The notes below the pieces were generated by a model that saw only the letters and a program-made list of their open reading frames with translations, was not told the DNA's origin and ran no database searches. 64,000 bases of DNA from Candidatus Omnitrophota bacterium (GTDB lineage: Bacteria; Omnitrophota; Gorgyraeia; Gygaellales; Profunditerraquicolaceae): the NCBI GenBank assembly GCA_028717245.1, contig JAQUOD010000002.1:76772-140771 (forward strand). Reading direction: 5' to 3'. Position 1 is the first letter of the stretch. Each line of letters opens with the position of its first letter. Positions 1-33,300 of this stretch are shown piece after piece. The position numbers and the translations under genes are program-made.

Positions 1-330
1 ATTAAGGTTGTGGGGCAACCATCAACTGAAACAAGCCAGCCAGCAGAAACTACCACTTCGCCTGCGGATACAGGAACGAAAGAGCAGCAGCCAGCCCAAG
101 CTCCAGTGCCAGTCGAGCCAGAAACCCCAACCTCAGCTCCGACCGCGGTTCCTGCGTCAACGCCAACAGCCGAAGAACCTGCGCCTACTCTTGCTCCGGC
201 CGCAACAGAGCAGCCCGGCGAGCAAGAAGAGGCTGAGGTTAAGGTTGAGGGCGAAAAAGCTCCGGCCGCGGCTCCCGTTGAAGCGAAGCAAGCAGAGGAA
301 AAAGCAGCCGAAGCGCAAGCTGAAAAGGAT
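1..330 (+). other. Low-complexity Pro/Thr/Ala/Glu-rich linker ([16 protein letters not shown]...[16 protein letters not shown])
   Basis: Direct translation of frame +1. Confidence 0.6.
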
Positions 331-9300: not shown

Positions 9301-12300
9301 CCAACCGCACAGGCGCCTATCTCCCAGAAAGATATTTTAGCTATTACCAATTGGCTGAAAGCAAACGTCAGCACTACCACCGGCTTACCTTTCAGCTTCC
9401 AGATACCCGAAGATAAGAAGAAAGAAGTCTATAGCCGTATGGGAGAAGCTAATTCTGTAAAGGGGATTATTGAACGAATGATTGTAAATGAAGGCTTGGA
9501 AGTATATGACGGCGCTTGCTGGGGGATACTTCTTACAGCGAGCGGCGACAATAAGAACTTAGAGTTAGCCTTTATACCTATTAATACTTATTGGAACGGC
9601 TCCTTAGGCCAGTTGCAGACCATTAGGGCGGGTTTTGCAGGAAAGAATACAGACCAACCATTTATCTATGATATAAATAGCCCTACTTCCGTATCCGCTT
9701 CTTTGGCGGATAAAGGAAAACGCGGCTTTATCTTCAGGATTATTGATGCCAATGGAAAATATAATACTGCTGACCCGTTAGATGGGAAGACTTATCTCCA
9801 AGGGTTCCCTACCTGGCCTACTATCCACTGGGAAGATTGGAAACCTATTGCCGGCGAGAACGCTTGGATAAGTATGCAGGCAGCGCAGTATCATAACGTT
9901 AAGCATGACGCCGTTTCATTACAATTAGCAGAAGAATTAGCCAGGACAGCCATATTACTGCAGGCAGAGAACGGCGGTATTCGGATGGCTCCCATTGGCA
10001 CTTGGCATGAGCAAGGTTCCGAATTTTATTATTATGAAATCTCTACGGAAAATAACCACTCTTGGTATAGTGCCTTCAGGATGCTTTATCAGATAACCGG
10101 TAAGGATATTTACAAAAAAGCAATGGAAGGAATTGAACGCTACTTTAAATCTGTTTGGGATCCGGAAACCAATACCTTCTATCAGGGCGCGCATTACACT
10201 AATGGCCGGTGGGTTCTTAATAAGAGTGACTTTGCGGAGGATTGTCAGAGCTGGGGAATTGATGTCTTAGGGCCGCAGAAGATAGATTCCTGGTTTGGCG
10301 AAGGCGCCTCTTATAAGATGTGGAAGAAGACCAAAGAATTATCCGGATATTATCAGGGGAATAAATTATTGGGCGTGGGGTACACCGCTGAACATGATCA
10401 GCTTTCAGTAGAATGGACAAACGGTGGGATTTTTGCTACCAGAGAGTTAGCTACTTATTATCAAAATACCCATCCAGATTGGGCAAAAGAATGCGCTGCT
10501 GATGCCCAGAGCATGAGAGATGGAGTTGAGACTCTGAAACAGGAATCAAATGGCAAAACCGGTTACTCTTATTCTTTAAAGAGAGAATATATACCGTTTG
10601 GATGGTATTCACACGAACCGTCAGTTTTAAGCACTACATCTACTGCCTGGGTGGGATTTGTAGATTTAGGTTATAATCCTTTCTATTTAGGCGGAAAGTC
10701 AGGAGTAGTTCCTGCTACGGCACAATTACCGGCAGCTACTGCGAAAGCGACGCTGACTCCGACACCGACTCCAACTTCTGCTCCAATAACTCCCCAGCAG
10801 CAAGTGAAAAAGGCATTAGAGGTAGATTTAGGAAACTTACAATATTATTCCGGCACAGGCTGGGCTTCTTGCGCTGTGGACGTGGTCAATATTGACGCTT
10901 CAGGATACGATACGCTTAGAATTAAGGCATCAGGCAAGGCAGGGGATAAGTTTATTGTGCAGTTGCTTGATTCCTCTATGCACGATGATAGTTCAAGCGG
11001 GATAAGTTCAACAAAGGCCCTTTCCGGTAGCTCTCAAGAAGTAAATATACCTCTTTCAGAATTCCGCGGCGTAAATCTAAAGAGCGTGCGCCGGATTGCT
11101 ATCCATTATGGCCGAAGCGCCTGGGGCAGTGCTCTTAACCCGCAGGGAGCAGATATCGGATTAAACGGCATTACCTTTATTTCAACACGGACAGCCGGAC
11201 TTCTGCCGGTTGCGCCAACCACAGCTTCATTACCTTCTGTTCCTTTAGCCACTATTCCGTTAAATATGCTTCTAGCGTTGGCAGTTGGGCTTATCCAAAT
11301 AAAGAAAAGAAACAGCAAAATAAAAGGTTCTAATGTCGGACTCCTAAAGAAATCCGCAAAAGAATCTTTACAAGGTAAATCTAACTTTATAGGCGATTTA
11401 GCTATTAAGGCATATTTAACGAAGGGTTGCCTGTCAGGATTAAACAGGAGAGCGGCGATAGGAATACCTGTCGCGCTTATGCTCGCAGTAATCCCCGCCA
11501 TAATGCAAAACATCGAAGTTCGGGCGCAATCCGGGACATTACAGATAACCCCGCCAAGTAATCCACAATACGCTTCAGGCACGAATTGGGCCGCTCGTTG
11601 GGTAGATGTAGGAAATATCAATGTTTCAGAATACAGCGTTTTAAGGCTTAATCTATCAGGCAATGTTGGAAATAACTTTATTGCACAGTTATTAAATACC
11701 TCTATTACCGATGATAATAGTTCAGTTGGCAAAAGCCCGGTATATACTCTGACTGTTGCTTCTCAAGACATAGATATACCTCTTTCGGCATTCGCTGGCG
11801 CTAATTTGAGTAGTATTCGCAGGATTACTGTCCATTTCGGCGCGACCGCTTGGGGGAACTACCTTAATCCTCAAAACACAAATATAATAGTAAACAGGAT
11901 TGCCTTTGTTGACACTATTGCGCCTGCTATCTCCATAGTTGCTTCTTCAAACATCACCAGCTCTTCAGCGGTGATTACCTGGACTACCAATGAGCCAGCA
12001 GATTCGCAGGTAGAATACGGCACCGGCACAAGCTACGGCTCAACTACCAGCTTAGATGCTGCTTTAGTCACCAGCCATTCAGTTACTCTCACAGGCCTTG
12101 CACCCGGCACTACCTATCACTACTGCGTAAAGAGTAAAGATGCCGCAGGAAATCTCGCTCCCGGAACGGACAATACCTTTGTTACTCCTGCAGCTCCGAC
12201 TCCCACTCCGACGCCTACGCCTACACCGACGCCTACGCCGACACCTACACCAACTCCAACTCCAACTCCAACTCCGACTCCGACACCGACACCAACGCCG

Positions 12301-15300
12301 ACACCAACACCAACGCCTACACCCACTCCGACGCCTTCTAAAATAAAGGGAGTTACCTTATCCACGGTACCCAAAGGGAAAACCGATAAAGACTTAATTC
12401 TCGATTTAGCCTCTGTGGGCGAAGCCAATATTAAATTAATGTCTCAAGCAGGAATAAATACAGTAAGGACCTATTATCCTCCTTCCGGAGACTTATTAGA
12501 TGCCTTTGCCAGATATAATATAAAAGTAATTATAGGATTCCCGAAGGATGATTTGAGAAATATTCTTGAACAGTATAAGGCGGATATTAAAGGAGGCAAA
12601 TACAAAGATTACATAAATCAGTATAAGAATCATCCTGCGGTCTTGATATGGGAGCTGGGTAATGAATATAACCTGCATCCGGAGTGGTTCGGCGGGGATT
12701 TAAACAATTGGTGGTCAATGCTGAAAGACGCAACCACTGTAATCCATAGCATTGATCCTAATCATCGGGTATCCACTACTTTAGGATACGCGAATTTATC
12801 CAGCGATATCCCGCAAGTAGTGGCTGCGGGCGTTGATGTGATTGGCTTAAATTACTATGCAGGGGGGGATAATTATTCAGCTGCGGTTACGGAACTAAGG
12901 GCGCTTACAAATAAACCCATCTATTTTTCCGAAGGCGGGACAGACTCTTACAATAACAGTATAAATAAGGAGAGTCAAGCTGAGCAGGCCCAGGCAGTGG
13001 TAAATATTTGGAATTCAATTAAAGATGCGGATGTTTTGGGGATTACCTTTATGACTTGGCAGGATGAATGGTGGAAATCCGGAAATCCTGCTGCCCAGGA
13101 TATGGGTGGATGGCCTACTCTTGCTGCCTATGATAATTTTATAAACGATGAATGGCTGGGCTGGAAAACTATAGACAAAATACGTAAATTGGTTTTAAAT
13201 GAAATTGCTAAGCTGTGGACAGGGGCGCCTCTGCCAGCAGCGCCTGTTGTTTCACCAATTGTCCTTTCTGGTATCACCACTGGCTCAGCTGTAATTACCT
13301 GGGAAACCGATGGGCCAGCGGATGCGCAGGTAGAATATGGCATCGACACAAGCTATGGTTCAGCCACTACCTTAGATGTTGCTTTAGCCATCAATCACTC
13401 AGTTACTCTCGCAGGCCTTGCCTCCGGCACTACCTATCACTACCGCGTAAAGAGTAAAGATGCCGCAGGAAACTTGTTTACCAGCAATGACTATGTCTTT
13501 AGCACTCTTGCGCCACCTGCTCCGCCTTCAGGCGGCGGCGGTGGTGGTGGAGGCGTAGCACCGATAAACGCAAACAAGCCTCCGGTAATAAAAGATATAC
13601 CGCCACTCAACTTAACTCTCGGCCATAGAAGGCTTCCTATAAACTTAAAGGATTATGTTTCTGATGATACGACCCCCGATTCTGATTTAATCTATAATTT
13701 TAACCCCGCTGATTTAGACCCCGATGTCAACGCTACTTTAACCGGCCCTATCTTAACTATCAGCGCTCCGCCGACTTGGGAAGGGCCGACTTCGCTGGAT
13801 ATCACGGTAACGGATACAGGAAAGGCCTCTGCCTCATATACATTGACGATAAAAGGTAAAGCTAATAAGGCACCGGGAGTAATAAAACCTATACCGCAAT
13901 TAAATTTCTTTACCGATAGGAGAAAAGACAGCAGAGACTTAAAAGATTATTTCTTTGACGAGACTATTGTGTCTCCTTTGACTTACCGCCTTGATAAATC
14001 TTCGTTAAACCCCGATGTCAACGCTACCTTAACCGGTTCTATCCTGACTATCAGCGCCCTACCGAAGTGGGGAGGCACAACTTACCTTAATATTACGGCA
14101 TCAGATACAGAATTAGATACTACATATAAGTTAACGATAACCGGCGAGGCTAATAACCCGCCGGTAATAAGAACAATGCCGCCAATCGCCGTCTTCGCTG
14201 TCGGCAATAAATGGCCCGGCATAAACTTAGAGCAATATGTTTCTGATAAAAACACTGCAGCGTCCAAATTAAGCTACGAAATCATTAATCCCCAAAGGAT
14301 AGACTCCCGCTTGAACGCAACTATTGATGGCAGCCATATTTTACATATTTCTACCTCGGCCAATTGGAAAGGCACAAGCAGCGTTACGCTTAGAATAGGC
14401 GACGGGGAATTGTCAACTGACTGTACTTTAAATGTTTCTGTTAACACCGAAATCCCGGCTCCCACGCCTACGCCTAATCCGATACTTCAGCCTGTTGTTG
14501 ATTTATGGCAGAATACCTGGGTTAAAGTAACTGTGGCAGTAGTAGGGGTAGCCGTTGTATTTAGTATTATCCTTGCTTTCTTAATGAGGATAAGGAAACA
14601 GGGTGGAAATGTTACTGCTTTAGGTTCAATGATTGCCGGCTTAAGTTTCATTGCTGCTGGAGTTCTGGCAGGCTTATTTATTCCTGTCGTCGGTCTCATT
14701 GTGGGCGGGCTACTGGGCGCCGCAGGAGCCTTCTTCATCGCCCAGGCAATGGCAATTGTTTATGCCTTTGTAAAGCAAGGCGGAATCAGGGGCCAGCCGC
14801 GGTATAAGTATCTTACTACTCCTATTGCCCAGCCTACTTATCGCCATCTCGCCTTCAAATATTTGCCAATAATATTCAGAATCTCCATTAACCGCCACGA
14901 ACGGACCCACTTTAAACACAAAAGTGAGATAAGGGCTTACCTTAACCAGGCCTTATATCTAATACCAGATGCTATTAAATCTACGAAAGAATCCATAAAG
15001 GAATCCGCAAAAGAAGCCTTGAAAGGTAAGCCTACCTTTATAGGTAACTTAGCTCTTAGGATTGCATTAACCGAAGATTATTTACCGCGGTTCAGCAGGA
15101 GAGAGGTAATTGCCATACCAGTTGTAGCTGTAATAATTGCTGGCGCAGCAATTCCAGCTATAGTTCAGACTGTTGAAGCGAAGGAAGAATCCGAAGTAGT
15201 TGTTTTTGTTTTGGATAGCGGAGAATATTTTGATTGGCAAGATGCGGTAACGGTTATACTTAAGGATGAGTCTAAGAATATACCGGTTGAAGATACCATG

Positions 15301-18300
15301 AATAAAGTTCATGGTAGCATTGTAACGAAAATTATTAAAGATGCTTGCAGTGGTGCGAAGATAATTTACAAAAATGTTGGCGTAATTAGACCTTCTATAT
15401 ATATGCCGAATGAGAAAAAGTTTATTATCCCCGGTTTTACAGTATCTGTTGTGAAATATCTAACGGAATTAATAGACATTTTAGACTATGTCAAAGTTCA
15501 TCCGCAGGAAAAAATATTAGTTAATATGAGTTTCGGTAATTATGAATACGATCCTTTAGAGTACGCAGTCATAGAAACTCTCGCAGAAAAGGGAGTGATA
15601 TTTGTAGCGGCAGCAGGTAACGATGATACTGACGAGCCTATGTATCCTGCTGCATATGAAGAGGTGATTAGTGTTGCTGCCGCAGGCGATAAATCTAAAG
15701 CGGAATATTCAAATTACGGAGAGACTGTGGATATAATGGCAAGAGGTAAATTTGAGGCAGAAATATTACCCGGGATGGGAATTACATTTGGATTTGCAGG
15801 AACTTCTATGGCAGCTCCTCGAGTGACTGGTTTATTAGCCAGTATGCTTATGGAGAATCCTGAGATTTCTGCTCAAGAGGCAAAGGGGATAATTTTAAAA
15901 ACAGCAGATCCTATGAGTGATCCGCTCTATAAAAAAGGCATGTTAGGAGCGGGGATAATAGATAGCGATGAAGCATTATATGAAACTTCAGAAATAGTAT
16001 TTTTTAGACGGTATCCATCCGGTGTAATTAAGAGTTGGGTAGCACAAGGGAACAGCATATATTCTGTATTCTTATCGCCTGATGGAACAAAATTAGCCCT
16101 GGTTTACAAGGATAAAAATATAGAAATCATTGATTTTGCTAGTGGAAATGTTAAGGTTACCAATGAACGTGCCGATTACGCAAGTCCCATCGCCTTTTTA
16201 CCTCAAGGAGAAACGTTATTCTTTATTAGTAATAAATCTGTAAAGATTATGGATCTCGCTACGGAAGAAGTTAGAACTATGGATGTGCCTAGAGGATATA
16301 TAAGCGATATCGCCTTCTCGCCCGATGGAAATAAACTTGCGTTGAGATTAGGAATAGAGGATAAAATCGATATTTTAGATCTTGCTACCGCAAAGTTGGA
16401 AACCATCGCTATTCCATCAAGCATTATTAGTATCGTATTTTCTCCTGACGGAGCTAATCTGGTAACAAGCTGTTATAATGGGAGTATATATGTTTATGAT
16501 TTAAATGCCGGAAAGGTTAAAGAACTGATAGGATATGAGGATACTTTTGATTTAGTATTTTCCATGGCCTTCTCGCGTGACGGAACTAAATTAGCCTTGG
16601 GTCATGGTACGGGTAATATAACTGTTTTAGACCTAAATGCAATAACGGCTAAAGTGCTAAAAGGGCATATAGATTCAATAAATACTATTGCTTTCTCCGC
16701 GGATGGGGCAAAATTAGTTTCAGGTAGCGTAGATAAAACTATAAGGATTTGGGATTTTAATAAAGAAGAAACCGAGACAATAAGAGATACTAATGAAATT
16801 CTTGCTGTTTTTTTATCGTCCGATGGTAATACGTTGATATCAGCGACCGGAAAAAACGTCAGAGCGTGGGATTATAAAAATATTAAAGCGTCAATAGATA
16901 AATTTAATTATTCTGAAAGACCATTCAGTTTTTTAGAGAGATCTTACATCCTTTCTTGGTGGGAGGGGCTAATATTTTCTGTTTCATCTTGGTGGGAGGG
17001 GCTATCTCTTGGGATACAGGTTTTAATAGTTTCTATCGGTCTCATAATACTTCTTGTAATAATAGATGAGTTAAATAATAGAAATTCTGAAAAAAACGTT
17101 TCTGCAAGAGGCTCTCTTATGGCAGGAATGGCTGCTTGGGTAGCCACAGGTATTATTTTAACTATACCTTTTATTTGGTCAATGATTCCTATGGTAGTAA
17201 TTCTTCCTGTTGTTTTATCGTTGTTTAGTTTCGGAGCTATATTCATCTACAAAGGGATAAGGATTTGGTTAACTAAGGCAGAGGCGAGCCGTGCGCCACC
17301 CACAAAAAAACAGCTTGAAGAATTAAAGAAAAGGATTGGAACTGGTTATAATCTAACGCTTCTTCCCCACGATGGTAGAACCGCCATCGCCTATGTTAAT
17401 AATAAGCGAGTACATATTGACCTATCTCGCTTCTATTATCTCTCCACTCTGATTCAAAAATCTATTCTTGCCCACGAGCAAGCCCATCTTAGAGGCCATG
17501 GCGAAATAATAGCATATTTTAACCAGGCCTTATATTTTATAACCAATATAATCAAAGATATTAAATGGTTACGTAAAGCCTACGACACGTTAAGTAAAAT
17601 AAGAATAAGAATACCTTGGCAAATACCCATCATTAGTAGCTTCATTACTTTGTTTGTATATGGCCTATTCGTATTTTGTAAAGGTGTCCTTGGCGTCATA
17701 CTCTATAACCTCGAGATATCTTTTATTAATGTTTACGCTAATTTATCTTATAGTACTGTTATCAGAGAGCTTACTCTTATTGATGTAGGGAGAGCCATTA
17801 AATCAATTGGATCTCTTCTCGCTCCCGTTACTGCAACCGTGAATTTCCTCTTTCCCTTTGCAATGGCAGGAATAGTAATACTTATGGTCGTTACATTCAT
17901 TGCAAAATGCCAGGATATTTATATCGGTTTACCTAAAGCCCATGTTTTCCATAAGGCACAAAAGCCATTGGTTAACCTCTATTTATCCTTAGAAGGGGAG
18001 AATTTAGAAAATAAGGTACAAGAAGAAATAAAAGATTTACGAGAACAGGTAGAAAATAAACAGATTTCATTAGGAGAGGTTTATTGGCGGGTAGCGAATA
18101 TATGCGAAGGAGCACTTAAAGAAAGAGACAGGGTAAAGAAGGACGCACAAAAAGAAGGAAAAGCTGGCGCAGCTTCTACGTTTGAAAACTGGAACGAGAC
18201 ACAAATAAAAGCTATAGAGCAAATCTGGCAGGATATTCAGGGGGCAGAGGAAGGCAATATTAGCAATATAAGTAAACTTGCCTATGAATTGATAATGTCC

Positions 18301-21300
18301 GGCGGCAAAACAGAATTAGCTTTCTTCATTTTAACATTATGGTATGTAGCAAAGAGTTATTTAGGCCTTGATAAAATAATTTATACCAGCTGCAACGAAA
18401 ATGCAGTAGAAGCTGATTTCGAGGCATTAAAAAAGGCATTTGAGATTATTAATATAAATGTTAACAAAAGATTAAAAGAGAAAGCAGATGAGCGGGATTT
18501 GAATGAATATGCCGCAGACGCCATTACCTTTGTCCCTTATCAGGTCTTCTCGATTGACTGGGAGAGGCATTCAATGGATACCAATCCAGTGATTAATACG
18601 GCAAAAACAGCGTTGCTGGGCTTAGAGTTTGATGCGCTCTTTGATGACCTATTTACTCCTCAGATTCTCTTAGGGGATCCCATCGGGCCGAGCGATATTT
18701 CAGACACTCAACATAAAGAAGTAATAAAAGAAGCAGTCTATTCTTATGCTGAGATACAAAGAATATATTCATTTGTCAAGGGAGAGCTTGAATGTGGAAG
18801 GGATTTTATAGTCAGGCAGTACGCTGATAAAGATGCAGAGGCGGAATCAGAAGGCGCGCGTTTTGAAACGCATTATATTGAGATTACAGAGGAAGGTTTA
18901 GACTTAATATTTAAAAAACTCGGGAATGATAACCGTTATGTAGCTTTGGTGAAAGGCTGTTTAGATGCAATGTACCTTTATCATCAAGGCATACATTATG
19001 TCACAAAGGCGGATGGCCTTCAATTAATACATACGCCTACAGGCCAGATTTTTGAAAATCGCCAATTACAGGACATCAATGTCTGGTTTGCGCTTTATGT
19101 AAAAGAAGGTTTATTCCAAGATAACCTTACGTCGGAGAATATGCGGATAGTCCTAAGTAGTTATTCCGAAACCAAGGATTATAGCAATCTTTTTTCTCTA
19201 TTGGATGCAATGGGTTTAGTCTGGGGCTTAAGCGGGACCTTGGAGCAGGCCCTTTTGGAGCAATTTGGCTATAGCGTAAAAATTATTGATGGCCAAGAAA
19301 TTGAAAAGGCAAGAAGAGGAGCGACCAAGGAAGAGCCCGCCCTGTTATATGCAGGAAAAAATTTCGCTATAGGAAAAGTAATTTTCGAGGCTAAAAAACG
19401 TGCCGACAAGAAAGAACGGGTAGTCATTTATGTGGAGGATGTAGAGAGTGCCGAAGAATTAGAGAAAAGATTTAGAGAACTTGGCATAATAGCGAATTGC
19501 TTAACTCAGGAAATGAGCCCGAAACAGATATCGGAGGTAGTAAAGAATGTCGCAGGTAGGAAGGAAGAGATTACTATTATTACTTCTTCTTCCAGCCGCA
19601 ATACCAACTTCAAATTAATTCTCGACGAGGATCACGGGGAATCAGAGGATTCCGAGTCGGCCATATTTAATTTCCTTATTCTCGGCGGAAGGGATGTCTG
19701 GCGCTGGCAGAGACAGCTTTTAGCGCGTATCCCGCGTTTGACAGGCTATAACGAAGGAATATACCATTTCGATCCTGCGCGAATTAAGAAATTCTATTAT
19801 TTAGAGCAAAGCCTATTCCAGAAATATCCTTCTGTGGCAGAGGAATTAAAGAAAACATTGCGAGGCAGAGAGAAATTAGAATTGGACTCTTTCTCTCATG
19901 AAGCAAGGTGCGCAGATAGCCTTATAGAAAGCATAATGGATATGGCAACTACGGATTATAACCAGCAGTTAGCAGAGCAGAGGATAGTGGAGAAGCCGCT
20001 TACTGTATTAAGGAATGAGTTTATTACAAGGCGGAATGAGCTTGATGACGATAGCCAGAAATTATTAGATGAGGCCTGGAGATTATTCTTAGCGAAAGTA
20101 GAAGATTTAAGGATTCTTCTGAGCGTGCCTTCAGCAAGCAAAGAAGCAACGATAGGCTATTGGGCGGTTCAACTACAAGAGGCGTTTGATAATACGGTAA
20201 TGAAGGCATATAGAGGAGAGGAATTAGAGAAAGAGAAACCCGTAGAAATCGTTGAGGATATATACGGGAGAGAAGTCGTGCCGGGTAGATTAGGGCGATG
20301 GTTAAAAGAATGTGTAATAGAAGCTTTGCGGGGAAGACCCAATCTTATAGGTAAATTAGTTGTTCGGTTATATATTTTATATAAAAATTTTGCAGCAGGT
20401 TTAAAACGTATGGTGCCCTCTTTGTCCTGGTCAACGGCAGGCACAACGGGAATAGCAGTAGTGATAGTGATTAGCGCCGTGGCTAGTACTGGCACACAAA
20501 ATGTTTATGCTCAGTCAAATAACAAAGTTAAAGTTGAAGGTTATCAATTATTAGTGGATGGCAAGCCGTATCAGATTAAAGGCATTACCTATAGCCCTGC
20601 CGGAAAAGGCACGCAGGGAGGCCAGTTCAGCCAATGGTATGAGAAGGATATCCCCTTGATGCAGGCAGCAGGGATAAATACTATCCGCACTTATGGAATT
20701 ATAACTGATAAAAATGTTTTAAAAGCATTTGCCGATGCAGGGATAAAAGTGATTGTAGGTTTTGATAATGCAAAAGATATAGCGACAGGCAACTATAAGG
20801 GTTATATAACCGAACACAAGGATGACCCGGCAATCCTAATGTGGGAATTCGGCAATGAATATAATTATCATCCGGAATGGTTTAGCGGAAATATTGATAC
20901 TTGGTATAACGCCTTAGAGCAGGCTGCCCAGGCCGCCCATAAATTAGACCCTAATCATCCGGTTTCAACTGCTCACGGAGAGGTGCCCGGTAAAGATATA
21001 GTACAAAAGGTTCCTTCGGTTGATGTCTGGGGAATGAATATCTATCGAGGCCAGTCTATCCAATCCGCGCTCTCCCAGTGGGCAAGCCTCTGCGATGAGC
21101 TCGGGATCACCAAGCCAATGTATGTTTCGGAGACAGGCACGGATTCTTTTAATAACTCTAAAGATGCGATAGATGAAGAGGCGCAGGCAGAGGCAACAGA
21201 GAATCTTTGGAGCCAGATAGACGGCTCAAGTAGTATCCATAATTCTAAGAATCCTTCTTTAGGAGTTACTTTTATGGAATGGAATGACGAATGGTGGAAG

Positions 21301-24300
21301 TCAGGAAGCCCTTCAACACAAGATAAAGGTGGTTTTGCGTTTAGCGTAGCCAGTGATAGCTTTGGTAATGAGGAATACTGGGGTTTTGTTGATATAGATA
21401 GAAAACCCAGATTGGTTTTAACTGAAATGGGTAATCTTTGGAAAGTGAAAGAAGCGGTTACGCCTGAACCTCAAGTTTCTCCTACGCCTGCAAGAGCGCC
21501 GCCTGTTACGCCAACACCTACGCCTACGGTTACATCTACACCGTCTCCAACCATAACCGCCGAGACACCAAGCCCGACACCCACTACCGCAGTAATTCCG
21601 GAAAAGACGACAGGGATCAAAGAAGAAATCAGTACGTGGGATAAGATATTAGATACTTTTAGAGAGATATTTAGTTGGGGTAACGCCGTTACTCAAACCT
21701 ATAACGGCGCTGAATTTGCTCCGGCTCCTACGTCGACACCTACGCCAACCATCAAACCCACACCTACGCCGACGCCTAAGCCTACCTTGACTGTGGGAGA
21801 AGTAATCGGCCAGAAAGACGTAAAGGGATTACAGTATCCTGTAACGCTGGAGACCGTAATTGCTATAGAAAAAGCGAAGCAGGTTTACATAGCCAGGCAA
21901 AAGGCGCTGGATGATCCCAACATCTGGGCTTATATTGAAAAAGATAACGATAACAATGATTACCCGGATGAACTGATTATCTTGAATAAGGCAGCTTATA
22001 ATGAGCTTTTGGAAAATAAGAAATTAAATCAAGAGGCGATAACTACCAAAGAAGGCGGCCTCCCCATCTATTATAAGATAACCTTAAAAGATACTGGCGA
22101 AGAGGTTCATTTTACGCCGGTAGGCGCAGAAGAAGAATTCACTCAAGCCGCTTCAGCCTTAGAAATCACTAAGGCAGCCAATGAGTCCTGGTTGAATTTT
22201 GATACCTACCCGGCATATATCACACAAGATACTAACGGCGACAGGCGGCCGGATATCGCGATTAAGCTTACCAAGAAAGACCTGCAATACCTTATTAATA
22301 ACGGGCTCCTCTTTTCAGAGCCGATAAATGATGCCCAAGGGAAGCTCTTATATTATAAGGTAACCTTAAGATATAATGCGACCTTGCCGGCAGGAGATGC
22401 CCTGAAAGCCGGTAGTGAGGTGCACTCCACCACGGATAAGGCGTTGATGGAGTTTCTTTCCGATGACCTGAAGGAGAGTCAAACAAGCATCCAGAATTTC
22501 CTGAATACTTTGGCTGGTGACAGGGCCGCAATCATAAATTTCCTGAATACTTTAGCTAACGATAAGGCCTTAATGCAAAACTTCCTAAATGCCTTAGCTA
22601 ACGACAAGGTCTTAATGCAGAATTTCCTGAATACTTTAGCTAACGATAAGGCAATAATGGAGGCCTTTGCAGCTACCTTAGCCAACGACAAAGTAGCTAT
22701 AATGTCATTTATAGACGCCGCCAATAACGGAGTTACTGATACCCAAAGGCTTCTCCAAGATGCAAGAGCAGGCGTAGGGGCAGCTCAAGCTAAAATTACT
22801 GACGCCCAAACAGAAATGGCCAAGTATGCTGACACTACTAACCCTGAAAACTACTCTATGTATCAATACTGGAATATGGTTACTTATATAAGGACAGCAG
22901 GAGGGGCAATCATACGTGCCGGTAATAATGTCAGTATTGTGGATATCAATGGCTCGGTAATATACGCTAATCCATTTGACTATAGAATGTATGTATCTGA
23001 AGGGACAAGCTATGAGCCGGGCTTAAACGGAGCGAATTGTTACGTAACCCTGATGCAGAAAGGCGGCTATATAGAAAGAGTTTCACAATATCAGATAGCT
23101 TATCATGAAGTTTCAGGCGGCGCGGTTAATTTGATTGGTTATGGAGGGTTTTCCGGAGGCACGCTTAATGTAGGCGAGAGCGTGGCTATGACCGGCGTGG
23201 ATGTTGCTAAAGCTTTCTTGAATTATATGACTAAGGGCGGGAATATGAAAGTTATGAATGACAAAGTTGTTGCCCTGAATATATTCGGTATGGGCACAGT
23301 TTATGCGCCGGCAGGGCTTAAAGTTGTTGCTTATCCTGATAACACAGCCGGGTTAGAGGGAATTAATAATATGATAGATGCTATGAATAACGATTATTCA
23401 TTTGAGGTCCAGGGCGATTTAGTAAAGTGGACAGTGCTGAATGTGGTTTCGGGCAAGGTAAGCACTTTTTCTGTTCCCGTATCCGCTACTATTGATGCCG
23501 CCCATACATTCCCCAAGACCGGCGGCTTAGGCGCGGTAAATAATATTATTACTGCTATGAATAATAATTATAGCTTTGTGGTGGGCGCTGACAATGTCAA
23601 ATGGGTGTCAGTAGATCCGGCTACGGGCAAGGTTTCCATCTTCTATACCGCAAAGACAGCAGCTGATGCGAGTCACCAGTTTCCCTCCAGCGGCGGCTTA
23701 GGCGCGATTGATAATATAGCTGTTGCCTTGCAGAATAGCTACGGTATGCATATAGTTGGCGACAGCGTCAGATGGGTAGTGGTGGACGTAAACACAGGTA
23801 ATATTATTGCTACTTTCTACACCGTCAATGTCCCTGCTGCTAATGTTGACGCAGCGCATCAGTATCCGTCTTCCGGCGGCTTGGCGGCACTTGACAAGCT
23901 ACCCATTGCCTTACAGAATAGCTACGCTATGGATATATCGGGCGACGTAGTCAGATGGAGAGTCGTGGATGTAGGTTCTGGAAATCTGGTTGCATCCTTC
24001 TATACAGCCGCGACTTCTGTTGTAAGCTCAAATCCATTACCGTCTTCCGGCGGCTTGGCGGCAATTGACAGGATACCATCTGCCTTACAAGGCAGTTATA
24101 CTATTACGCCGCTTGGCGGGGACAGCGTCAGATGGACATTATGGGATATGAAAACAGGATATGCCAATAGCTTTTTCTTTACGGCCTCAATCTATAGCGG
24201 TGACTCTGCGCATCAATTCCCGCGAAGCGGCGGCTTGGCTGTTATTAATAACCTGCTTTACGCCTTAGAAAATACTTATGTGCGGGAAGATTTAGTTGAT

Positions 24301-27300
24301 GCTTCCGATAGTTTTAAATCTAAATCCAAGTGGACAGTAGTATACAGCCCGACCGGGCAAGTGGATGAATTCTACACCCCGATGAGCAGCACAGAGACCG
24401 AGCCCAAACATCAGATACCGGCTTTTGGCGGTTTAGGCAGGGCAAGCACGGTAATTGACATTTCCCGCAGCACCTATACCAAAGAGGAGCTGCCTGATCC
24501 TGCTCAAGTGGCATCGCGTGATAAAACCAAATGGACAGTGAAGGATAAGGCAACCGGCGATGTCTCCTCTGTTTTTTATACGGTAAAAATAAACGAGGAG
24601 AGCCTGCTGATAAGAGAAGCCCATTTCATCGGGTGGGGTTACGAAATAAAAGACGGCATAGTTACAAAAATCTTCCAGACTGCCAGCGATATACCTAAAG
24701 ATATTAACCGGCTTGCTGACGGGACTAACATTGATAATGAGAATGAAAATGTCATAGAATACGGGCTTAAAGCAGCGCAATTCAACTACGATAGGGCTGA
24801 GAAAATGAGGGACAATAGTTTAGAGGCAAGAGAGGCGCTGCGCACCTGGGGATACTGGACTGTTAAAGATCCCGCCGCAGATATAAAGGATTTGGAGGAC
24901 CTTATCGTCCTCACTCCTGAAGAGATCCTGGAAGAGATAGAGAACCACAAGGCAAAGCTAACCATAAGCGGGCCGGATGAGAAGAGAAGGTATACGGCTA
25001 ATTATACAGTTGAAGGCAAAGAAGAAAAAGTTTTAATCTTTACCCCCGGCCTCAAAGGCACAGAGCAATATATTGCTGCTTTAGAAGGCAAAGATAATAT
25101 ATTCGGCGGCTATATGGAAGTGGGGATGGACGGACAGAAAACCTGGGTTTATAGCCTACAAGCCAGCCGCGAAAATCATGCTACCTCTAATCCGGTTGAA
25201 ACAACCTTTGATGAGGCCAAGATAACAGGAATCTTTAATAAGGTAGGCGTTCCGGCTGCGCAATACTTAGACCAGTTAAAATACAGCTCTACTAAAGAAA
25301 TTGCGTATTACATTCCATTCAATAACCCCGAGGATAGCTTTGTCCCTCAAGGCAAACCCGAGACTAATACCTATTTTGGCGGGTTATTGATAATGCAGGT
25401 CAGGGACGGCGTAGTAACCTATAATATCTACGACGGCACATTTGACCAATACGGACTGCCGCACATAAGCATCGGTTACGCCGTTGATACGGGAAAAATA
25501 AAGACTAAAACCATTATTACGGGCGTTGATGTTGAGAATAAAACTGTCAGCAAAGATGTTATTTATTATAACTCTGCCGAGCAGGAAGGCCGGACCGAAC
25601 AGCAAACCTTTGATGTTAAAGGCAGGATTCTAAACCAGCTTTATGGAGAAAACGGAGTTCGATACGGCTATGCGGGCACAGCCGGTGAATACGGCCAGCC
25701 GAGCACAATTACTACTTATCGAATTTTTAATGGAGGAGAAATCCCTATCCCTATTCAGGAAGGCGGACTTGTTGGCGCAGACGGACAGATTAATACAAAC
25801 GGCACAACCCTTGCTGATTTAAAAGCCCTTATCACATCCGGTGAGCTTGCAAAGAGGGGGTTCGTCTTTACGGATGAACAGAAGAAATACTTCCTTGAGG
25901 CTACCGGCTCCGAGCTCTTCTGGATTTATCAGTTTAATGCCGCAACCACCAGCAAAGATTTCTTGAGGCTTGAGATTTTTGACGGTTCTGCTTCTGTGCC
26001 CGTGGCCATACTGAGCGATGTAGAAACATCCGTCAGGAAGATAGAAAAAATTAACGGCGAAGACACGATAATAACCCATTGGAACTGGGATCTGGCGCAT
26101 AACGTAAGCTTTAAGGGCGAAGGAAGAGGCTCTTCTGTTTCCGAGCTTGAAAGTTTAGGCCTTACGCCTCCTCAAATAGAGCGTTTTAATGAAACATACG
26201 GCTTAAGTAATATATGGGTAGATACTATCACGAGTATGGATATAAAAACAAACCCCGTCATCAAATACGACATCTATGATTATGCGCATTCTAACCCCAT
26301 TGTGGTTATTTATAGGGAATATGCTGTTTCCGGCTCAGTTATTTCTAACGCCTACGTTATTTTCAATATTTATAATCCGGAATCCCAGGTCATTAGGGAG
26401 TCCACTTATTACGATATTAAGACAAACAAGAAATTATTATCCGATGTGCTTGGCGAAGAAATTACCCCTGATAAATTAACTAAAATTCTAGAGGATAACA
26501 AAGTGGATTTATCAGAGGCAAGAGAGGATAATTTTGCCGATAAACTTGGCAAGCCGGGAGAGCTTAGTAATCTCATCACTTATTTAGACAAGCTACCCTT
26601 ACGTGTTTACAATAGGACCGTATACCAAAATGATAATGAATTTACGACCATACTCGTATATGACGGCATCCAAAAAGAGCCGCGCCTATTTATCGGGTCC
26701 GATAATGTAGAAATCACCTATCCTAAAGGAGTATACCAAGTCCCCGCCAGCGCTGTCGGGCTGGATATAGCGCGGTATTTCTCGGGAAACTATACAGTTC
26801 ATTCTGACATGCCGTATGTAACCTTGGATAAGGGAAAACTTTTCATGGGAAGTAAGCCTTTTGAGATTAGGGCTATTACCTTATCTGCTGTTCCGGTGGG
26901 CGGAGAACGCGTGAATTTCGTATTCGATCTTTATCGCGATGAAGATAGGGTAGCTGTTGAGGCCTGGAAAAACGATAATGCGGATAAGCTGACAGAAGCT
27001 AATATAGGTAAATTTTATACCGAAGCATCCAATATAAAAGGGAAATATTATGCTACTATTCCCGCTAACTACAACGGGCTAAACAACAGGGAGATATTTG
27101 CGATAATCAGTAAAGATAAAAATACAAACGCTATTTCCGTTGAATATAATAACGGGACAATAAAAGAAGTTTGGATTGCAGGGCTTAAAGGTAAAGGGAT
27201 AAATACAGTAAGGACTTATGTCGTGGCTAGTGAAGACTTATTGGCCGCTTTTAGAAAGTATGGTATCAGTGTAATTCAGGGGATACCTTATTTTGACGAC

Positions 27301-30300
27301 AGGCAGCCCGGCACTCCGATTTTTGACGCCAATGGAAAACTTTTGAACCCTATCGCCGGCCCGGATATCAAGACCGGAACTTACATACCATATATTGAGG
27401 CCCATAAAGACAACCCGAACACACCAGAAAAAGAATACCCGGAGATTATAGGAGATGAATATGGCAATGAATATAATTACCATCCCGAATATTTTGCCGC
27501 AGATGCTGAGGAGGCCTCAAAAGCGTCCGGCGTAAAAATAAAGCCGCTTGATTTTTATTATCAAGCATTAGAGAAAGCAGCCCAAATAACCCACCAAAAA
27601 GACCCTAATCGCCTGGTTTTCTCAACCTACGGGTATGACGGAGTCCCTTCCACTAAAGATGATTTTGGCTTGGTAACCAGGCAAGTTCCGTCAGTAAATA
27701 TCTGGGGCTTGAACGTTTATCACTGGGATAATCCTTCAGGGGCCGTAGAAGAAGCAATAGCGGCTTCTGGTAAACCCATATATATCTCTGAAACAGGCGC
27801 TGATTCCTGGAATCAATACACAGGCAAGGAAGATTTGGCAGCGCAAGCCAGGGCAGTAGAAAATATATGGAAATCTTTATTGGATGATTTGGATGATGAG
27901 GATAACTTGAAGAAGAATGTCTTAGGCGCAGCATTTATGACTGCTTTTGATGAATTCTGGAAAGGTGGCGCCCCTGACAGGCAGACCACAGCAGGCGCTG
28001 TTTTTGATGTTTACCCCGATACATTTGGTAATGAGGCGCACTTTGGATGGTGGAGGGCTGACGGCACGCCTAAACAAGAAGTAATCGATGCTGTTACGAG
28101 GATGTGGGCAAATAGATCCAAAGGGTATGTTCCTACCGTAGCTATAGATGCTAATAGCCAACGCGCCCCTCCGGAGGAGATTTCACCCGAATATCTTAAG
28201 CCGCAAGATAACGAAACTCCAACCTTAAGCCCATCCGCAGTATTAACTTATTATAAAAACCCTCAGCCATTACCCGCGTTCCAGCCATCATTAGGCGTTA
28301 TTACATATATGTTAGGCGAGAGCCCTGATTGGGAGAATATCCAAATCTTTGACCCTCTGACCGATACGCTTACTTCATTTCCGCTCGCCGGGCTTAAACT
28401 CACAAAGTTTGGCACTTACACTCAAGATGGGCAGTTAGTTAACTTTACTTATCGCGAACCCCTCGATGCCTTTGGCAGGGTTAGGATTAGCGCTTCGCTT
28501 GACCTCAAGGACGTATACCTGATTACCAAATTCCAGGATGTGAATGTATATCAGCCGGAAGAAGCAAGGCTTCTTCAGCTGCTGGATAAAGAGGGCGTAA
28601 AACTTCTTAATCTGCCGGATGAAAAGGAAAAAGAGCTCCTCCAATTATTAGATGAAAATAAGCAAGTATATATAATAGCAAAGAGAATGGATTCTAAGGA
28701 ATCAGCCAAAGTAACTGATATATATAATTTCAGCGATGCGCAAAAAGCAGATATCAAAGGCGTAATAGCGCAGATAAAGAATAAGCCCGTAGAATCTTTA
28801 ACTGAAAATGACTTAACTCTGGTTAAGACAGAATCCAATATTGACGGTGAGATTTTCTATGAATACGCTGTCCCCGGAGATACGCTGGGAGGTTCAGTTA
28901 TTATTGACCGCGCCAACACCATATTTATCACTAAGCAATTTATCAGCTTAACCAGGATTCCTTACGAAGGGTATTTTATTGATAAAGCACCCGGCGGCGA
29001 GCCCATCTTAGAGCTTAAGAATACGGATGATAAGGATGTAGAACACGGCTTGGGTATGGATGATGAACAGCGCTTCTACAGGGTAAGATACACTAACCTG
29101 AAGACAGGCAAGGTTTGGTATCGTTGGCAGTATCCTTCTCATATTTGGGGCGGCTATGCCTATGAAGAAACAGGCCGTTTTGTGGAATTAGAGCAGGCAT
29201 ATTCTTACGTAGATAATTTAGGCCAGACAGTCGATGTAACCCAGAGATGGGTTCCCGAAACCCGCACCTGGGTAGATGAGTGGTCTACTATTAAGGATGA
29301 ACCTGCCAAGACAAGATTTGTCTATGTAGTAAATGGCCGCGAGCTGCCCGCGGATAATATCCAGACCGATGGCGTAAAACTTATGAAAGATATAATTACT
29401 CGCGATATGGAAGATGCCTACAGGAAGGAATCTAATAATAGAGATTTATGGGAAGATATGAAGTTGAGTGCAATAGGAGAAATAGACCAGGCCCAGCGAG
29501 ATGCTCTGGGAGATTGGGAAAAGGATAATTCTAATGTCTTTACTTCCGTAAACCTTGGCAAAATCTATAATATTCCGGATAATTATAAGAATCGCGGCAA
29601 TAAAGCCTTCCAGATAATCATTGGAATTACACCCGATACAAAGCTTACGCAGGTAAAGAAGACCCCAATTTTATGGCAGGGGAGCACAGATACGGAAATC
29701 CAAGCCACAGAAAAAACCGGCCCAGTTTCTTACTTCTACACCTTACCCAGCGACCCGTTAGGCAGGGGATTATTGATAGTTGTTCCTACTGGTGAGAATA
29801 CTTCAAAGATTATCCTTAATATGTGGTGGGTTAAGAATTCTGCGCCTTTAACTGTCTTGTCAAAGAGTATAACCTTAAAGCCGGGAGGCATAGAAATAGC
29901 AACTTTTGAAAGCAAGGTAATCCTGAATGGAAACGAAGTTTATAAATATTCCATCAAAAATGGCAATTATAAACTTGCCGAATATTATATTCCTACACGC
30001 ATGGACGTACCTTATGCTGAAGAATGGCAAATCAAGCACGGTCCCCTGGATTTTTTATTGGGTATACCCGATACCAAAATTATTTATTTTGATACAAAAG
30101 TTCCTTATCCCTCGCCTGTTTACTCAAAGGCAGACAATAGAGTAGAAGATATAGAAAAACTGCAGAAGATTATTTTCCTTGAAGATGGGTCACAAATACA
30201 GGTTTTTGATTCCGAAAATCTCTGGCCAAGTTGGGTAGTCGGAGACAATAAATGGGAAGAAAAAATAATTGTATACGATAAATACGGAAGAACAGGGACC

Positions 30301-33300
30301 TTAAGTCCTGAAGCGGAGAAGAAATTAGTTAAAAAACCTGTGGCTTCGGGCAATAATGCGCCCTTACCATTCCTTTCCAATGGATTAACATTGGGAATAA
30401 TCTGGGGAGCGCTTTTTGTGATTTTGACTATAATTGCCCCTTCCTTTTATTTTGTTCATCTCTACAAAAGATACAAAGAGAGAAGGAAGAGAAGTGGATT
30501 GAAGAAATTCACTGATGATATTTCGAAAAAAGCCTATGAACGGTTGCAGAGCAAAGTATTAGGCGTTGGAAAGGCTTCTATGCCTGGTGGCGCTCTTGCT
30601 GATAATGTCCTCGCAGGTAAAGGTGAATTTGAAATAGCTTTTCATCCCGAGATAGTTCACCTTTATAGTTATGTTTATGAGTTTTTGGCAAATAATTACA
30701 TACGTGAAGATAGCCCGGAGGGGAGAGAAATATTAGAGAAATTAGATACGTTTATAAAAGGCCTGGCAAAATATTACGCTTCTGAAATAGCAAGGGGTGC
30801 CATAGAGATACAGCCAAGCGGTAAAGATGAATGGAAAGTAAAGATTGTTGGTTTACCTAACGTAGAAGCCTCTCCAAAGTATTCTCTAATTGGTCCGGCT
30901 GATGCAGAAATAAACGATAAAGTAAAATATTATATCTCTAAATTTATAAAAGGATTGGAAGGCAACTTAGATAATAGGGATAAGTTTATAAAAATTATTA
31001 AAGAAGATTTTGCAAAAGACGGTTTTGAATTTAAACATTTTAAAGAAACGCTCCGAAAAGACGGATTTACATATTTACCTATTAGAGAGGAGATAATAGA
31101 GGAGTTAGGATTAGATGTGGGAGAAGCAGGGAGGGGTGCATTAAGAGGAGACATCGGGCTTGATGAAGTAAGTAGAGCGAGTGGAGATCCCGCAAGAAAG
31201 GAAATAATTGAGAGAAAATTGCTAGAGGCCGGCATATTGAAAAAGATAGACAAAGAAAAGATGAAAGAAGTATTGAAAAAGTTAGCCGGTGAATACAGCG
31301 CTTTAACTTTAATGGGCATATATAATCCTAAAATAAAGAAATATTTTATTGACGCCCCCTCGAATGTACGCCTTGCCTGTATATTATCCCCGATAATAGG
31401 AATTGCATCTTATCTTCTCTTACATGTATTGGGTGTACCCATACCCCTATTCGTTTATCTTGTAGCTGCATTTGGAGTCTATCCTATTCTTTTGAATATT
31501 GTTATGGCTATAGGGTTGTATATAATCACAAGGTCTCCCAAGGCAACATTTTTAAGTCTATTTCCTGTATCCTTAAGAAGATTTTCTGGTATTGCTAAAG
31601 GAACTAAGGCTCTGCATCCGTTTGCAACGGAAATAGTTGCTTATTTACCCCATTTTGTAGGCACAGGTATTCTTATTTCCTGGATATTCAGCGGATATAA
31701 TATATCCAGCCTGGCATTCTTGCCTCCCATTTTATCTTCTCTTCCTCTTACAGCGGTAACTATAGGAATTTCTGCAATTCTTTTGTTCAGCATAGTATTT
31801 GGAATTACGAAGTTTCACAGCGGGCGTTATTTCGGTATAATAGAAATGATTATACGCAGCGTTTTCAGCTTTAGTTTTCTTGCCTTAGGCGTTCTCATCT
31901 TACTTTCTCCTGTTTCTTTAACCGGTCAGTGGTTCTTAAGGAATATTGTTGGTATTCTTTTCTTGGTTGAAGCTTGGGGATGGGCCGCCTGGAGCCAATC
32001 TTTAATAGGCCTATCGCTATATTATCATTTTAGGCCAACAACAGGTTTCGGAAGGCTAAGAACAGTGATTTTGGTCTCTCTGCAGATAGTTTTATTCTAC
32101 GCCCTTAGCCTCTGGATGTCAGGTTTTACCGCGTCTTATTTTATCGGGCATATCCAGGCAGGCATATTCTTCAGAGCCACATTGGCGCAATTAGTCCTTT
32201 TCAATACCGCTTATCTTATGTATTCCGGAATCTGGTTTTTATTACAATCCCTGGCTTCTGTAATAAGACCTACAAGGGGTCCTGCAAAGATTGATCCTGC
32301 CGAGATAGAAAAATTTAAAGCAAGCGGCGATTATATTTTGACTAACTATGTCGGTCCCTTTTTCCATGGCGCGAGGAGAGCAAGTGATATCGAAGACGCC
32401 CCTGATGGTAAGAAAGGTAAACTAACTGAGACAATGGATGCCTTAAATTGGTTAATAGACAATAGGGTTCCTACTATTCTTGAGTTGGTTAAGGAAGTGA
32501 AGAGTAAGTGTGGGCCGTCATTCACTGATGAAGAAGCGAAAGAAAAAATAAAAGAATTACTCCACAGCCTCCTTACGAAATATATTCCAATCTGGAGGGT
32601 TATGGCAAAAGTAGCTGATAAGACATTAACTTCGGATGAAGAGTTGGCCTTAAGAATTTATCGAGAAATAGTGATGAAAACAGGAATAGATAACACTGAT
32701 ACCGCTCTTAATATATTAGAAAAGGCGCTTGTTTTAAGAGAAGCAGGCTTTGGCAAAAATCTTTTATTAGTACTTACTGATAACAAATTTGATTTGCATC
32801 AGGATCTTCCTGAAGATTTAAAGGTAAGAGGACCCTTTCAGGCATGCAAAGAATATTGTGAGCTTTTCGAAAGAATTTCTGGCGGTAAAGCATATTATAC
32901 CTATATCGGGACTCCTTTCACTTTTAAGTCCTTGGCAATGAATGGTATATTTACTCTCCCTTATGATATTATCACTAAGATTAAATATCTCCACATCATA
33001 GATAGAAATGCCAACAATCTAAATTTGGATTTGTTTGTGAAAGACATTAAAAGATTAATCTCCAATAATATCGTTGGTATGGTTGGTTATCGAGATACTA
33101 CGAGTTACGTGATGCCCGCAGGAGACGGTTCCCGCTTGGTAGAGCAAGGCCACGGGAATTCTTTATTGGGCTGGAATGACTTTACTGCTACGGGTTGGGA
33201 GAATAATCAGCGTGTATTTTTAGGAGATATTTTAACCACGCCTTCCAATGGTTCCTCCTTATATCCTTTAATTCCTTTTAACTGTAACGCTCCTTACGCA

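Follow-up and report, generated by a model that had tools for sequence, protein, structure and literature searches.

Three old paralogous clan GH-A glycosidase domains, probably GH158-like, in a giant membrane protein of Candidatus Omnitrophota

A 64,000-nucleotide (nt) stretch of contig JAQUOD010000002.1 from a Candidatus Omnitrophota bacterium (GenBank assembly GCA_028717245.1, forward-strand positions 76,772 to 140,771; hereafter the window) carries three paralogous glycoside hydrolase (GH) domains of clan GH-A. The evidence supports a single giant multi-pass membrane protein of >21,333 residues as the carrier of all three. We think it probable that they are competent, retaining, GH158-like beta-glucanase modules of this protein that act outside the cytoplasmic membrane, with beta-1,3-glucan as their probable specificity. 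The domains lie in frame 1 of the + strand and are ~300 to 440 residues long (positions are those of the window; aa, residues of the frame 1 translation):

12334..13227 (aa 4112-4409), + strand: GH copy 1, a clan GH-A barrel without the N-terminal beta-hairpin, with E4222 (nt 12664-12666) as acid/base and E4311 (nt 12931-12933) as nucleophile
20521..21450 (aa 6841-7150), + strand: GH copy 2, a complete barrel, with E6953 (nt 20857-20859) as acid/base and E7044 (nt 21130-21132) as nucleophile
26806..28128 (aa 8936-9376), + strand: GH copy 3, a complete barrel that carries three loop insertions and, after beta1, an 85-residue insert, with E9157 (nt 27469-27471) as acid/base and E9264 (nt 27790-27792) as nucleophile

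In BLASTP searches against the window translation, each copy found exactly the two others, with 42% identity between copies 1 and 2 (E = 2e-68), 36% between copies 2 and 3 (E = 2e-50), and 38% between copies 1 and 3 (E = 1e-42). A family hidden Markov model (HMM) run on the 21,333-residue translation returned exactly three full copies (aa 4112-4409, 6827-7163, and 9056-9376) and one weak match at aa 8938-8975 (E = 0.04), which is the first beta-strand region of copy 3. A fourth copy is ruled out, this displaced strand being the sole extra match. Both catalytic glutamates occur in every one of the three copies and in 160 to 164 of 166 family domains, and the signature residues—R in beta2, N-E in beta4, Y in beta6, E in beta7, and W in beta8—are likewise found in all three and in 149 to 164 of the 166. 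An earlier note, made from the DNA sequence alone, had described three paralogous domains with both catalytic glutamates, a description that BLASTP, the family HMM, and the alignment bear out. The motif blocks that it listed are all present, as GINT(V/I)RTY, GNEYN.HPE(W/Y)F, SE(G/T)G(T/A)DS, and FM(T/E).. DE(W/F)WK.G. Translation from its coordinates gives open frames for copies 1 and 3. Its copy 2 start, 20520, misses the frame by one base and yields a string of stops (20521 reads cleanly), and copy 3 begins ~128 residues before the proposed start at 27190, near nt 26806, its first strands being split off by the 85-residue insert.

Membership of the domains in clan GH-A is established: Pfam, sequence searches of the PDB, and Foldseek all gave families of this clan. 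In Pfam, copies 1 and 2 matched Glyco_hydro_2_C (PF02836) at 30.6 and 32.8 bits, respectively, against a gathering score of 21, and copy 3 had no match. Copy 2 also passed the Glyco_hydro_72 threshold (30.4 versus 25.9 bits), covering just profile positions 7-104 of 314; copies 1 and 3 had no Pfam match to this model. NCBIfam held no specific model, its GH2 equivalogs scoring far below their cut-offs, and Pfam found no Glyco_hydro_2_N or Glyco_hydro_2 domain (the N-terminal sugar-binding and immunoglobulin [Ig]-like domains of GH2) in the frame; the homologs likewise comprise no more than a signal peptide and the barrel. The resemblance previously proposed, "GH72/GH5-type," is supported in that the domains belong to clan GH-A, and it can be refined. 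GH5 membership is ruled out, with no match to Pfam Cellulase (PF00150) at E values up to 1 and no GH5 entry among the top sequence or fold matches; the nearest families are GH158 and GH2.

A sequence search of the PDB placed GH158(Pro) on top, both with copy 2 alone (E = 4e-11) and with a 25-sequence profile (1e-17). The next profile matches were GH2 barrels (1e-12), BuGH158 (6.5e-10, below several GH2 barrels), GH157 (8.5e-9), and GH72 (4e-6). AlphaFold (AF2) models were made for copies 2 and 3, and Foldseek was run on both. Each model is a confident (beta/alpha)8 barrel of eight strand-helix units (pLDDT 86.9 and pTM 0.90 for copy 2; 82.3 and 0.85 for copy 3), and copy 1 aligns along its full length with the modeled copies. 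GNE comes straight after strand 4 (residues 105-110) of the copy 2 model, and SE lies in strand 200-205, at the end of strand 7. The top Foldseek matches of both models were all clan GH-A barrels, headed in each case by GH158(Pro): for copy 2 at 3.7e-19, with a structure-based identity to GH158 of ~22% and a TM-score of ~0.65, followed by GH2, and for copy 3 followed by GH2, GH157, GH50, and GH53. Copy 2 and GH158(Pro) share 32% identity over beta1-beta6 (74 bits), compared with 35% (97 bits) between BuGH158 and GH158(Pro); the window domains are 31 to 35% identical to GH158 over these strands, comparable to the divergence within GH158 itself. The GH2 barrel, GH157 (LaGH157), and GH72 have the same clan and barrel, at identities below 20%.

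In clan GH-A, the glutamate of the N-E pair after strand 4 is the acid/base and the glutamate after strand 7 the nucleophile of a double displacement, and we infer from clan membership that the three domains are retaining. GH158, GH157, and GH72 are all active on beta-1,3-glucan, while GH2 enzymes are exo-glycosidases of other specificities. The GH158 enzymes BuGH158 (PDB 6PAL) and GH158(Pro) (PDB 9ORO/9P25), both retaining endo-beta-1,3-glucanases, have the N-E acid/base after beta4 and the glutamate nucleophile after beta7 in common with the window domains. The BuGH158 type is a lipoprotein of ~420 residues, whereas the window barrels are modules of a giant membrane protein. A retaining mechanism has been shown in BuGH158 using nuclear magnetic resonance (PMC7157763).

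A word-indexed search with copy 2 found 2,352 homologs. The best were stand-alone proteins of 330 to 430 residues, 46 to 50% identical, from Bacteroidota (often with a type IX secretion system [T9SS] tail) and one Sumerlaeota. These proteins, named "GH2 TIM barrel-domain containing protein" at NCBI, have all signature residues in common with copy 2 and carry an N-terminal signal peptide where copy 2 has a signal-peptide-like cassette (cassette C, below). They are separate secreted proteins in polysaccharide utilization loci, whereas the window copies are internal, copies 1 and 3 being more divergent (35 to 45%). One homolog, P0049 from Gaetbulibacter aestuarii (46% identical to copy 2), lies in a locus with the order SusD, carbohydrate-binding module (CBM)-like, GH16, GH149, GH17, P0049, major facilitator superfamily, GH17, in which GH149 and GH17 were recognized by near-identity to solved structures (6hq6, E = 0; 6fcg, E = 2e-167). 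This is the "variant-1" laminarin locus, which has been listed as GH149, GH17, GH16, GH158, and GH30 (PMC10877868, PMC12961874). Since the other genes of the locus are assigned, P0049 is the sole remaining candidate for the listed GH158. Beta-1,3-glucan is our best guess for the substrate, and the beta-glucan-active role suggested in the earlier note fits both the neighboring families (GH158, GH157, and GH72) and the position of this homolog.

The predicted location of the domains follows from a hydropathy scan and the positive-inside rule, of which only locally consistent signals around each block were used. A cassette of ~65 residues occurs at exactly three sites and consists of an amphipathic G(K/R)xx(F/L)IGxL segment, RR or KR, a hydrophobic helix of 15 to 20 residues, and a VxA-Q-type end. 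A regular expression for its core matched these three sites only (~0.06 matches expected from composition, by estimate), and a three-sequence cassette HMM found no copy in the fetched relatives. The cassettes and an associated module are as follows:

11341..11535 (aa 3781-3845), + strand: export cassette A, with RR, an 18-residue helix, and VRA-QS; 50% identical to cassette B; positive residues N-terminal of the helix, predicting an in-to-out orientation
14992..15192 (aa 4998-5064), + strand: export cassette B, which opens the Peptidase_S8 and WD40 block
18388..20076 (aa ~6130-6692), + strand: divergent SecA-like module; matches of 2e-7 to 4e-6, including PDB SecA2 4uaq (2e-7) and SecA 5k9t (4e-7); weak Pfam SecA_PP_bind and P-loop_SecA
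20302..20526 (aa 6768-6842), + strand: export cassette C, which ends VYA-QS right before GH copy 2

Cassette C lies directly downstream of the SecA-like module, ~75 residues away, and its end matches that of the signal peptides in the stand-alone homologs; the HMM alignment of copy 2 enters their signal-peptide columns. Signal-like cassettes or linkers had been described before copies 2 and 3; a cassette is directly adjacent to copy 2 only, and copy 3 sits farther along the same block free of hydrophobic helices. Block A contains CBM-like, FN3, (TP)23 linker, GH copy 1, FN3, and Ig-like elements; block B, a subtilase and a WD40 propeller; and block C, 3,300 residues without a hydrophobic helix, including GH copies 2 and 3. 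The helix at aa 10128-10146, with 0 positive residues before it and 4 after, closes the exported block. Applied locally, the positive-inside rule agrees with an outside position of all three blocks. Given these local signals, the cassettes before secreted-type blocks, and the signals of homologs, we infer that all three barrels are extracytoplasmic and act outside the cytoplasmic membrane. Assignment of inside and outside by helix parity from the GGDEF domain was dropped as unreliable. Omnitrophota fragments P0122, P0128, P0129, P0133, P0153, and P0179 contain internal Sec-like, twin-arginine-like (SRRDFIGNLF, SRRSFLR), and lipobox-like (LSGC, LSAC) sequences upstream of the GH domain.

Several observations weigh against the reading of the domains as exported GH158-like beta-1,3-glucanases. 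The sequence match to GH158 ends near strand 6 and spans the N-terminal half of the barrel only. In GH158, a C-terminal eight-stranded Ig-like domain packs on helices 7 and 8 and shapes the cleft (PMC7157763, PMC13195107). This domain is absent here: the stand-alone homologs (331 to 334 residues) stop with the barrel, and a Pro/Thr linker comes next after copy 2. After copy 1 the next element is an FN3 domain, but its orthologs carry a different domain at that place. Membership of clan GH-A is established, and we call the family "GH158-like" as a provisional name. GH2 barrels score nearly as high as GH158 in both sequence and fold. P0088, an abundant marine flavobacterial homolog with a T9SS tail, is encoded in a SusC/SusD locus with GH5+CBM6 and GH10 (L002/L003 10001-11185); being outside laminarin loci, it shows that the family is not restricted to them, and the family may cover more than one substrate. 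Beta-1,3-glucan is not known to be a main polymer in the walls of the archaeal prey that has been described for the one cultured relative. The hydropathy scan behind the topology is home-made, helix counting upstream of aa 3000 is not self-consistent, and the gene ends and full architecture lie outside the window.

Some of these observations point toward glycosidases of other specificity (exo-beta-galactosidase, glucuronidase, mannosidase-like, or xylan/mixed-glucan enzymes) instead of beta-1,3-glucanases, which we regard as unlikely but a serious contender. Apart from the partial GH72 match of copy 2, the models matched in Pfam and NCBIfam are those of GH2 barrels, GH2 structures score almost level with GH158, and the P0088 locus has no laminarin genes. 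However, the N-terminal sugar-binding and Ig domains that define GH2 are absent, GH158 is the best sequence and fold match for both modeled copies, beta-1,3-glucan is also the target of the near neighbors GH157 and GH72, and P0049 sits in a canonical laminarin locus. It is also conceivable, though improbable, that the domains work as transglycosylases and, like the glucanosyltransferases of GH72 and GH17, remodel surface glycan of the cell itself instead of breaking down foreign polymers. Copy 2 exceeds the Pfam GH72 threshold, GH72 structures appear at 4e-6, and the same polypeptide contains glycan-synthesis modules (NTP-transferase, phosphoglucomutase [PGM], and two GT5 domains). Yet the GH72 match is confined to positions 7-104 of the 314 in its profile, and the synthesis modules, which belong to the alpha-glucan (glycogen) type, are ~5,000+ residues distant, beyond a cluster of hydrophobic helices at aa ~10128-11548; the closest characterized relatives are hydrolases (PMC7157763, PMC13195107).

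We consider it very improbable that the domains are cytoplasmic or serve as inactive binding or scaffold modules. Helix parity from the GGDEF domain is ambiguous, and disagreement among topology predictors has been reported for these giant proteins (bioRxiv 10.1101/2023.11.21.568195), but the catalytic and signature residues are complete in all three copies, and the neighboring elements are of secreted type (FN3, Ig, CBM-like, Pro/Thr linkers, and subtilase). The signal-peptide-like VYA-QS before copy 2, at the position of the homologs' signal-peptide end, and the occurrence of the domain after Sec-, twin-arginine translocation (TAT)-, or lipobox-like signals in other Omnitrophota fragments also argue for export of competent enzymes.

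The list of open reading frames (ORFs) for the window is nearly empty because the entire window is one stop-free frame that runs off both ends:

1..63999, + strand: giant-gene fragment, with no stop in frame 1; no other long ORF listed

Frame 1 holds 21,333 codons without a stop and is open at both ends, and in the other five frames stop-free runs reach 218 codons at most. The three copies are dispersed over 16 kb, as described previously, yet they are modules of this one ORF, a point absent from the earlier note. That the giant ORF is an assembly or annotation artifact joining domains of separate ordinary genes is hardly credible: the GH77 homolog is a stand-alone gene (~600 residues) in other Omnitrophota metagenome-assembled genomes (MAGs) and the 1,902 residues between copies 2 and 3 lack a detectable homolog, but 21,333 stop-free codons stand against at most 218 in any other frame, GH-containing orthologous fragments in independent MAGs likewise fill their contigs as ORFs of up to 5,805 residues, and multi-enzyme giant proteins are documented (bioRxiv 10.64898/2026.06.07.730766). 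The sole ORF of at least 150 codons outside the giant frame, at 11106-11732 on the - strand (208 codons, TTG start), is antisense to cassette A and domain X and is probably a chance ORF.

The duplications that produced the three copies are old. When all three were used in an exhaustive profile search, 2,978 representatives came up, the top of the list being mostly long, partial, contig-filling ORFs of 850 to 5,805 residues named as Omnitrophota MAG proteins. Copy 1 has orthologs with 54 to 58% identity (P0122, P0123, P0128, P0129, P0132, and P0137). For copy 3, ortholog similarity runs far past the barrel: P0124 is 48% identical over 816 residues, and P0127 is 37% identical to the copy 3 module over 1,147 residues, up to the helix at aa 10128. 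Neither the profile search nor the 166-domain tree contained a close ortholog of copy 2. In the neighbor-joining tree of these 166 domains, the copy 1 clade had a bootstrap value of 99 and the copy 3 clade one of 58, and a smaller tree agreed. With distinct ortholog sets and conserved flanks, the copies are therefore old paralogs in distinct modules, and both the trees and the separate orthologs of copies 1 and 3 date the duplications as old. Stretches of nucleotide identity among the copies, reported earlier, do exist as patches, but these measure just 25 to 34 nt at 88 to 92% identity, cover conserved motif codons, and give no sign of recent duplication. Recent duplication or gene conversion is ruled out, since nucleotide similarity is found only in motif codons and the orthologs separate in the tree. 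Repeats in Omnitrophota giant proteins have been described as ancient and not as recent tandem expansions (bioRxiv 10.64898/2026.06.07.730766). The separate conserved module lineages suggest non-redundant roles.

The Pfam domains of the giant frame begin with GGDEF, a SAM methyltransferase, and peptidase M28; continue with FN3, GH copy 1, FN3, Ig-like (Big_9), peptidase S8, a WD40 propeller, and GH copies 2 and 3; and end with two nucleotidyl-transferase-type domains, a starch-synthase-type GT5, phosphoglucomutase, a GH77 4-alpha-glucanotransferase (385 bits), and a second GT5. The hydropathy scan found 31 to 49 hydrophobic 19-residue segments, depending on threshold, or roughly one per 450 residues. 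No dockerin was found in the frame. The C-terminal third (~42950-63999, + strand) is a run of glycogen-type enzymes that includes fucose-pyrophosphorylase-like and NTP-transferase domains, GT5, PGM, GH77, and the second GT5. Its GH77 part is 54 to 68% identical to ~80 loci (L004-L083), nearly all from Omnitrophota MAGs, in which the homolog is an ordinary stand-alone gene. The GH module is absent from all 80 Omnitrophota loci fetched with the GH77 query, and none of them belongs to a giant ORF. Internal repeats were also observed. The closest pair in the window (75% identical) is aa 12560-12694 and aa 13502-13636 (nt 37678-38082 and 40504-40908); a repeat array spans aa 11626-12274 (nt 34876-36822), and several further pairs with 27 to 42% identity lie within aa 12597-15335.

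The surroundings of the three copies contain the following further features:

10834..11229, + strand: domain X1, ~130 residues, with a weak CIA30 match (7.7e-5)
11560..11958 (aa 3854-3986), + strand: domain X2, 47% identical to X1, with a weak Mann_GBD match; by sequence probably a galactose-binding-like or CBM-like beta-sandwich
11938..12180, + strand: FN3 domain a (Pfam fn3 / Pur_ac_phosph_N)
12194..12332, + strand: (TP)23 linker, period 6, 23.2 copies
13261..13500, + strand: FN3 domain b (Pfam), 69% identical to FN3 domain a, then a G8 linker
13567-13851 and 14146-14436, + strand: two Ig-like (Big_9) domains (Pfam)
15484-16896, + strand: Peptidase_S8 and WD40 block (Pfam), opened by cassette B
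21451..21780, + strand: Pro/Thr-rich linker after copy 2, seen in the sequence
26389..26805 (aa 8797-8935), + strand: conserved N-terminal extension of the copy 3 module, which aligns upstream of the GH domain in P0125, P0127, and P0131
28129..30438, + strand: conserved C-terminal extension of the copy 3 module, ending in the helix at aa 10128-10146; P0127 aligns with aa 9053-10146 and P0124 with aa 9050-9806

The flanks of copy 1 had been described as FN3-like domains and a (TP)23 linker; tandem-repeat analysis (period 6) and Pfam confirm the linker and two FN3 domains. In Omnitrophota fragments P0128, P0129, and P0164, a homolog of domain X comes right after the GH domain, which suggests a carbohydrate-binding partner module. 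Pfam gave no match in the long flanks of copies 2 and 3. The 1,902 residues between these copies (21451-27156, + strand) have no homolog at E values up to 1e-5 and no Pfam domain; internal repeats occur there at aa 7778-8197, and nt 22495-22691 form a 42/84-nt tandem repeat. HExxH motifs (HERTH and HEQAH; nt 14896-14910 and 17473-17487, + strand) are found in two paralogous juxtamembrane segments, and the pattern ILxHExxH..G.GE..AY..QALY is kept in Omnitrophota fragments P0129 (aa 2207-2263) and P0122 (aa 1791-1843). These segments had no Pfam match, and a word-indexed search with the segment comprising HExxH and cassette B found no homolog. They may represent a small metalloprotease motif.

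For the glycosidase domains, we propose that the polypeptide would be threaded repeatedly through the cytoplasmic membrane, the three signal-peptide-like cassettes each starting an extracytoplasmic block (A, B, or C) and the export of block C following an in-cis SecA-like motor. Outside the membrane, the barrels would cut a beta-linked glycan by double displacement; the most likely substrate would be a polymer of the beta-1,3-glucan type, from the envelope of a host or prey, from a biofilm matrix, or from dissolved glycans. More speculatively, the barrels might reach the cell surface, be released by cleavage, or feed the cytoplasmic glucan modules. A more far-reaching version, which we regard as a long shot, is a self-exporting, self-processing polyprotein in which the cassettes re-initiate translocation and are cut, and the cytoplasmic modules store imported glucose as glucan. 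In such a polyprotein, the in-cis SecA-like motor would serve the cassette that precedes the largest block; cleavage at the cassettes, by signal peptidase or by the conserved HExxH segments nearby, would free or tether the hydrolase blocks, among them the three GH158-like glucanases; and the PGM, NTP-transferase, GT5, and GH77 modules would turn imported glucose into storage glucan. If true, a single gene would connect digestion outside the cell with storage inside it.

Giant genes of Omnitrophota have been reported to encode many helices, a divergent SecA with DEAD and preprotein-binding parts but neither scaffold nor wing, GGDEF, peptidases, hydrolases, and a "sugar-metabolism module" of PF08323 and PGM (bioRxiv 10.1101/2023.11.21.568195; bioRxiv 10.64898/2026.06.07.730766). 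Like the proteins of the "Archaeovorin" type (West-Roberts et al. 2023) and the "multi-enzyme metabolic cluster" (Nielsen & Lui 2026), the window ORF exceeds 10,000 residues and has many helices, and the SecA-like domain, GGDEF, methyltransferase, peptidases, GH domains, starch-synthase/PGM module, and frequent internal repeats of these classes are all present in the window. A giant multi-enzyme Omnitrophota protein is thus of a kind already described, and the window adds detail while leaving the general published picture unchanged. Exact 60-mer searches of genome and metagenome collections did not turn up the window sequence itself. Neither a recurrent GH158-like module nor a repeated export cassette was found described in West-Roberts et al. 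2023 or Nielsen & Lui 2026.

In the window, the cassette and SecA-like anatomy offers a simple threading model, in which each cassette would open a hydrolase block, one of them right after the SecA-like module. Giant Omnitrophota proteins are thought to serve in cell attachment and envelope degradation, and almost no module has an assigned substrate. The putative GH158-like barrel is a concrete, cloneable candidate for such a module: at least three old lineages of it occur across many Omnitrophota giant-gene fragments, and its nearest characterized relatives cut beta-1,3-glucan.

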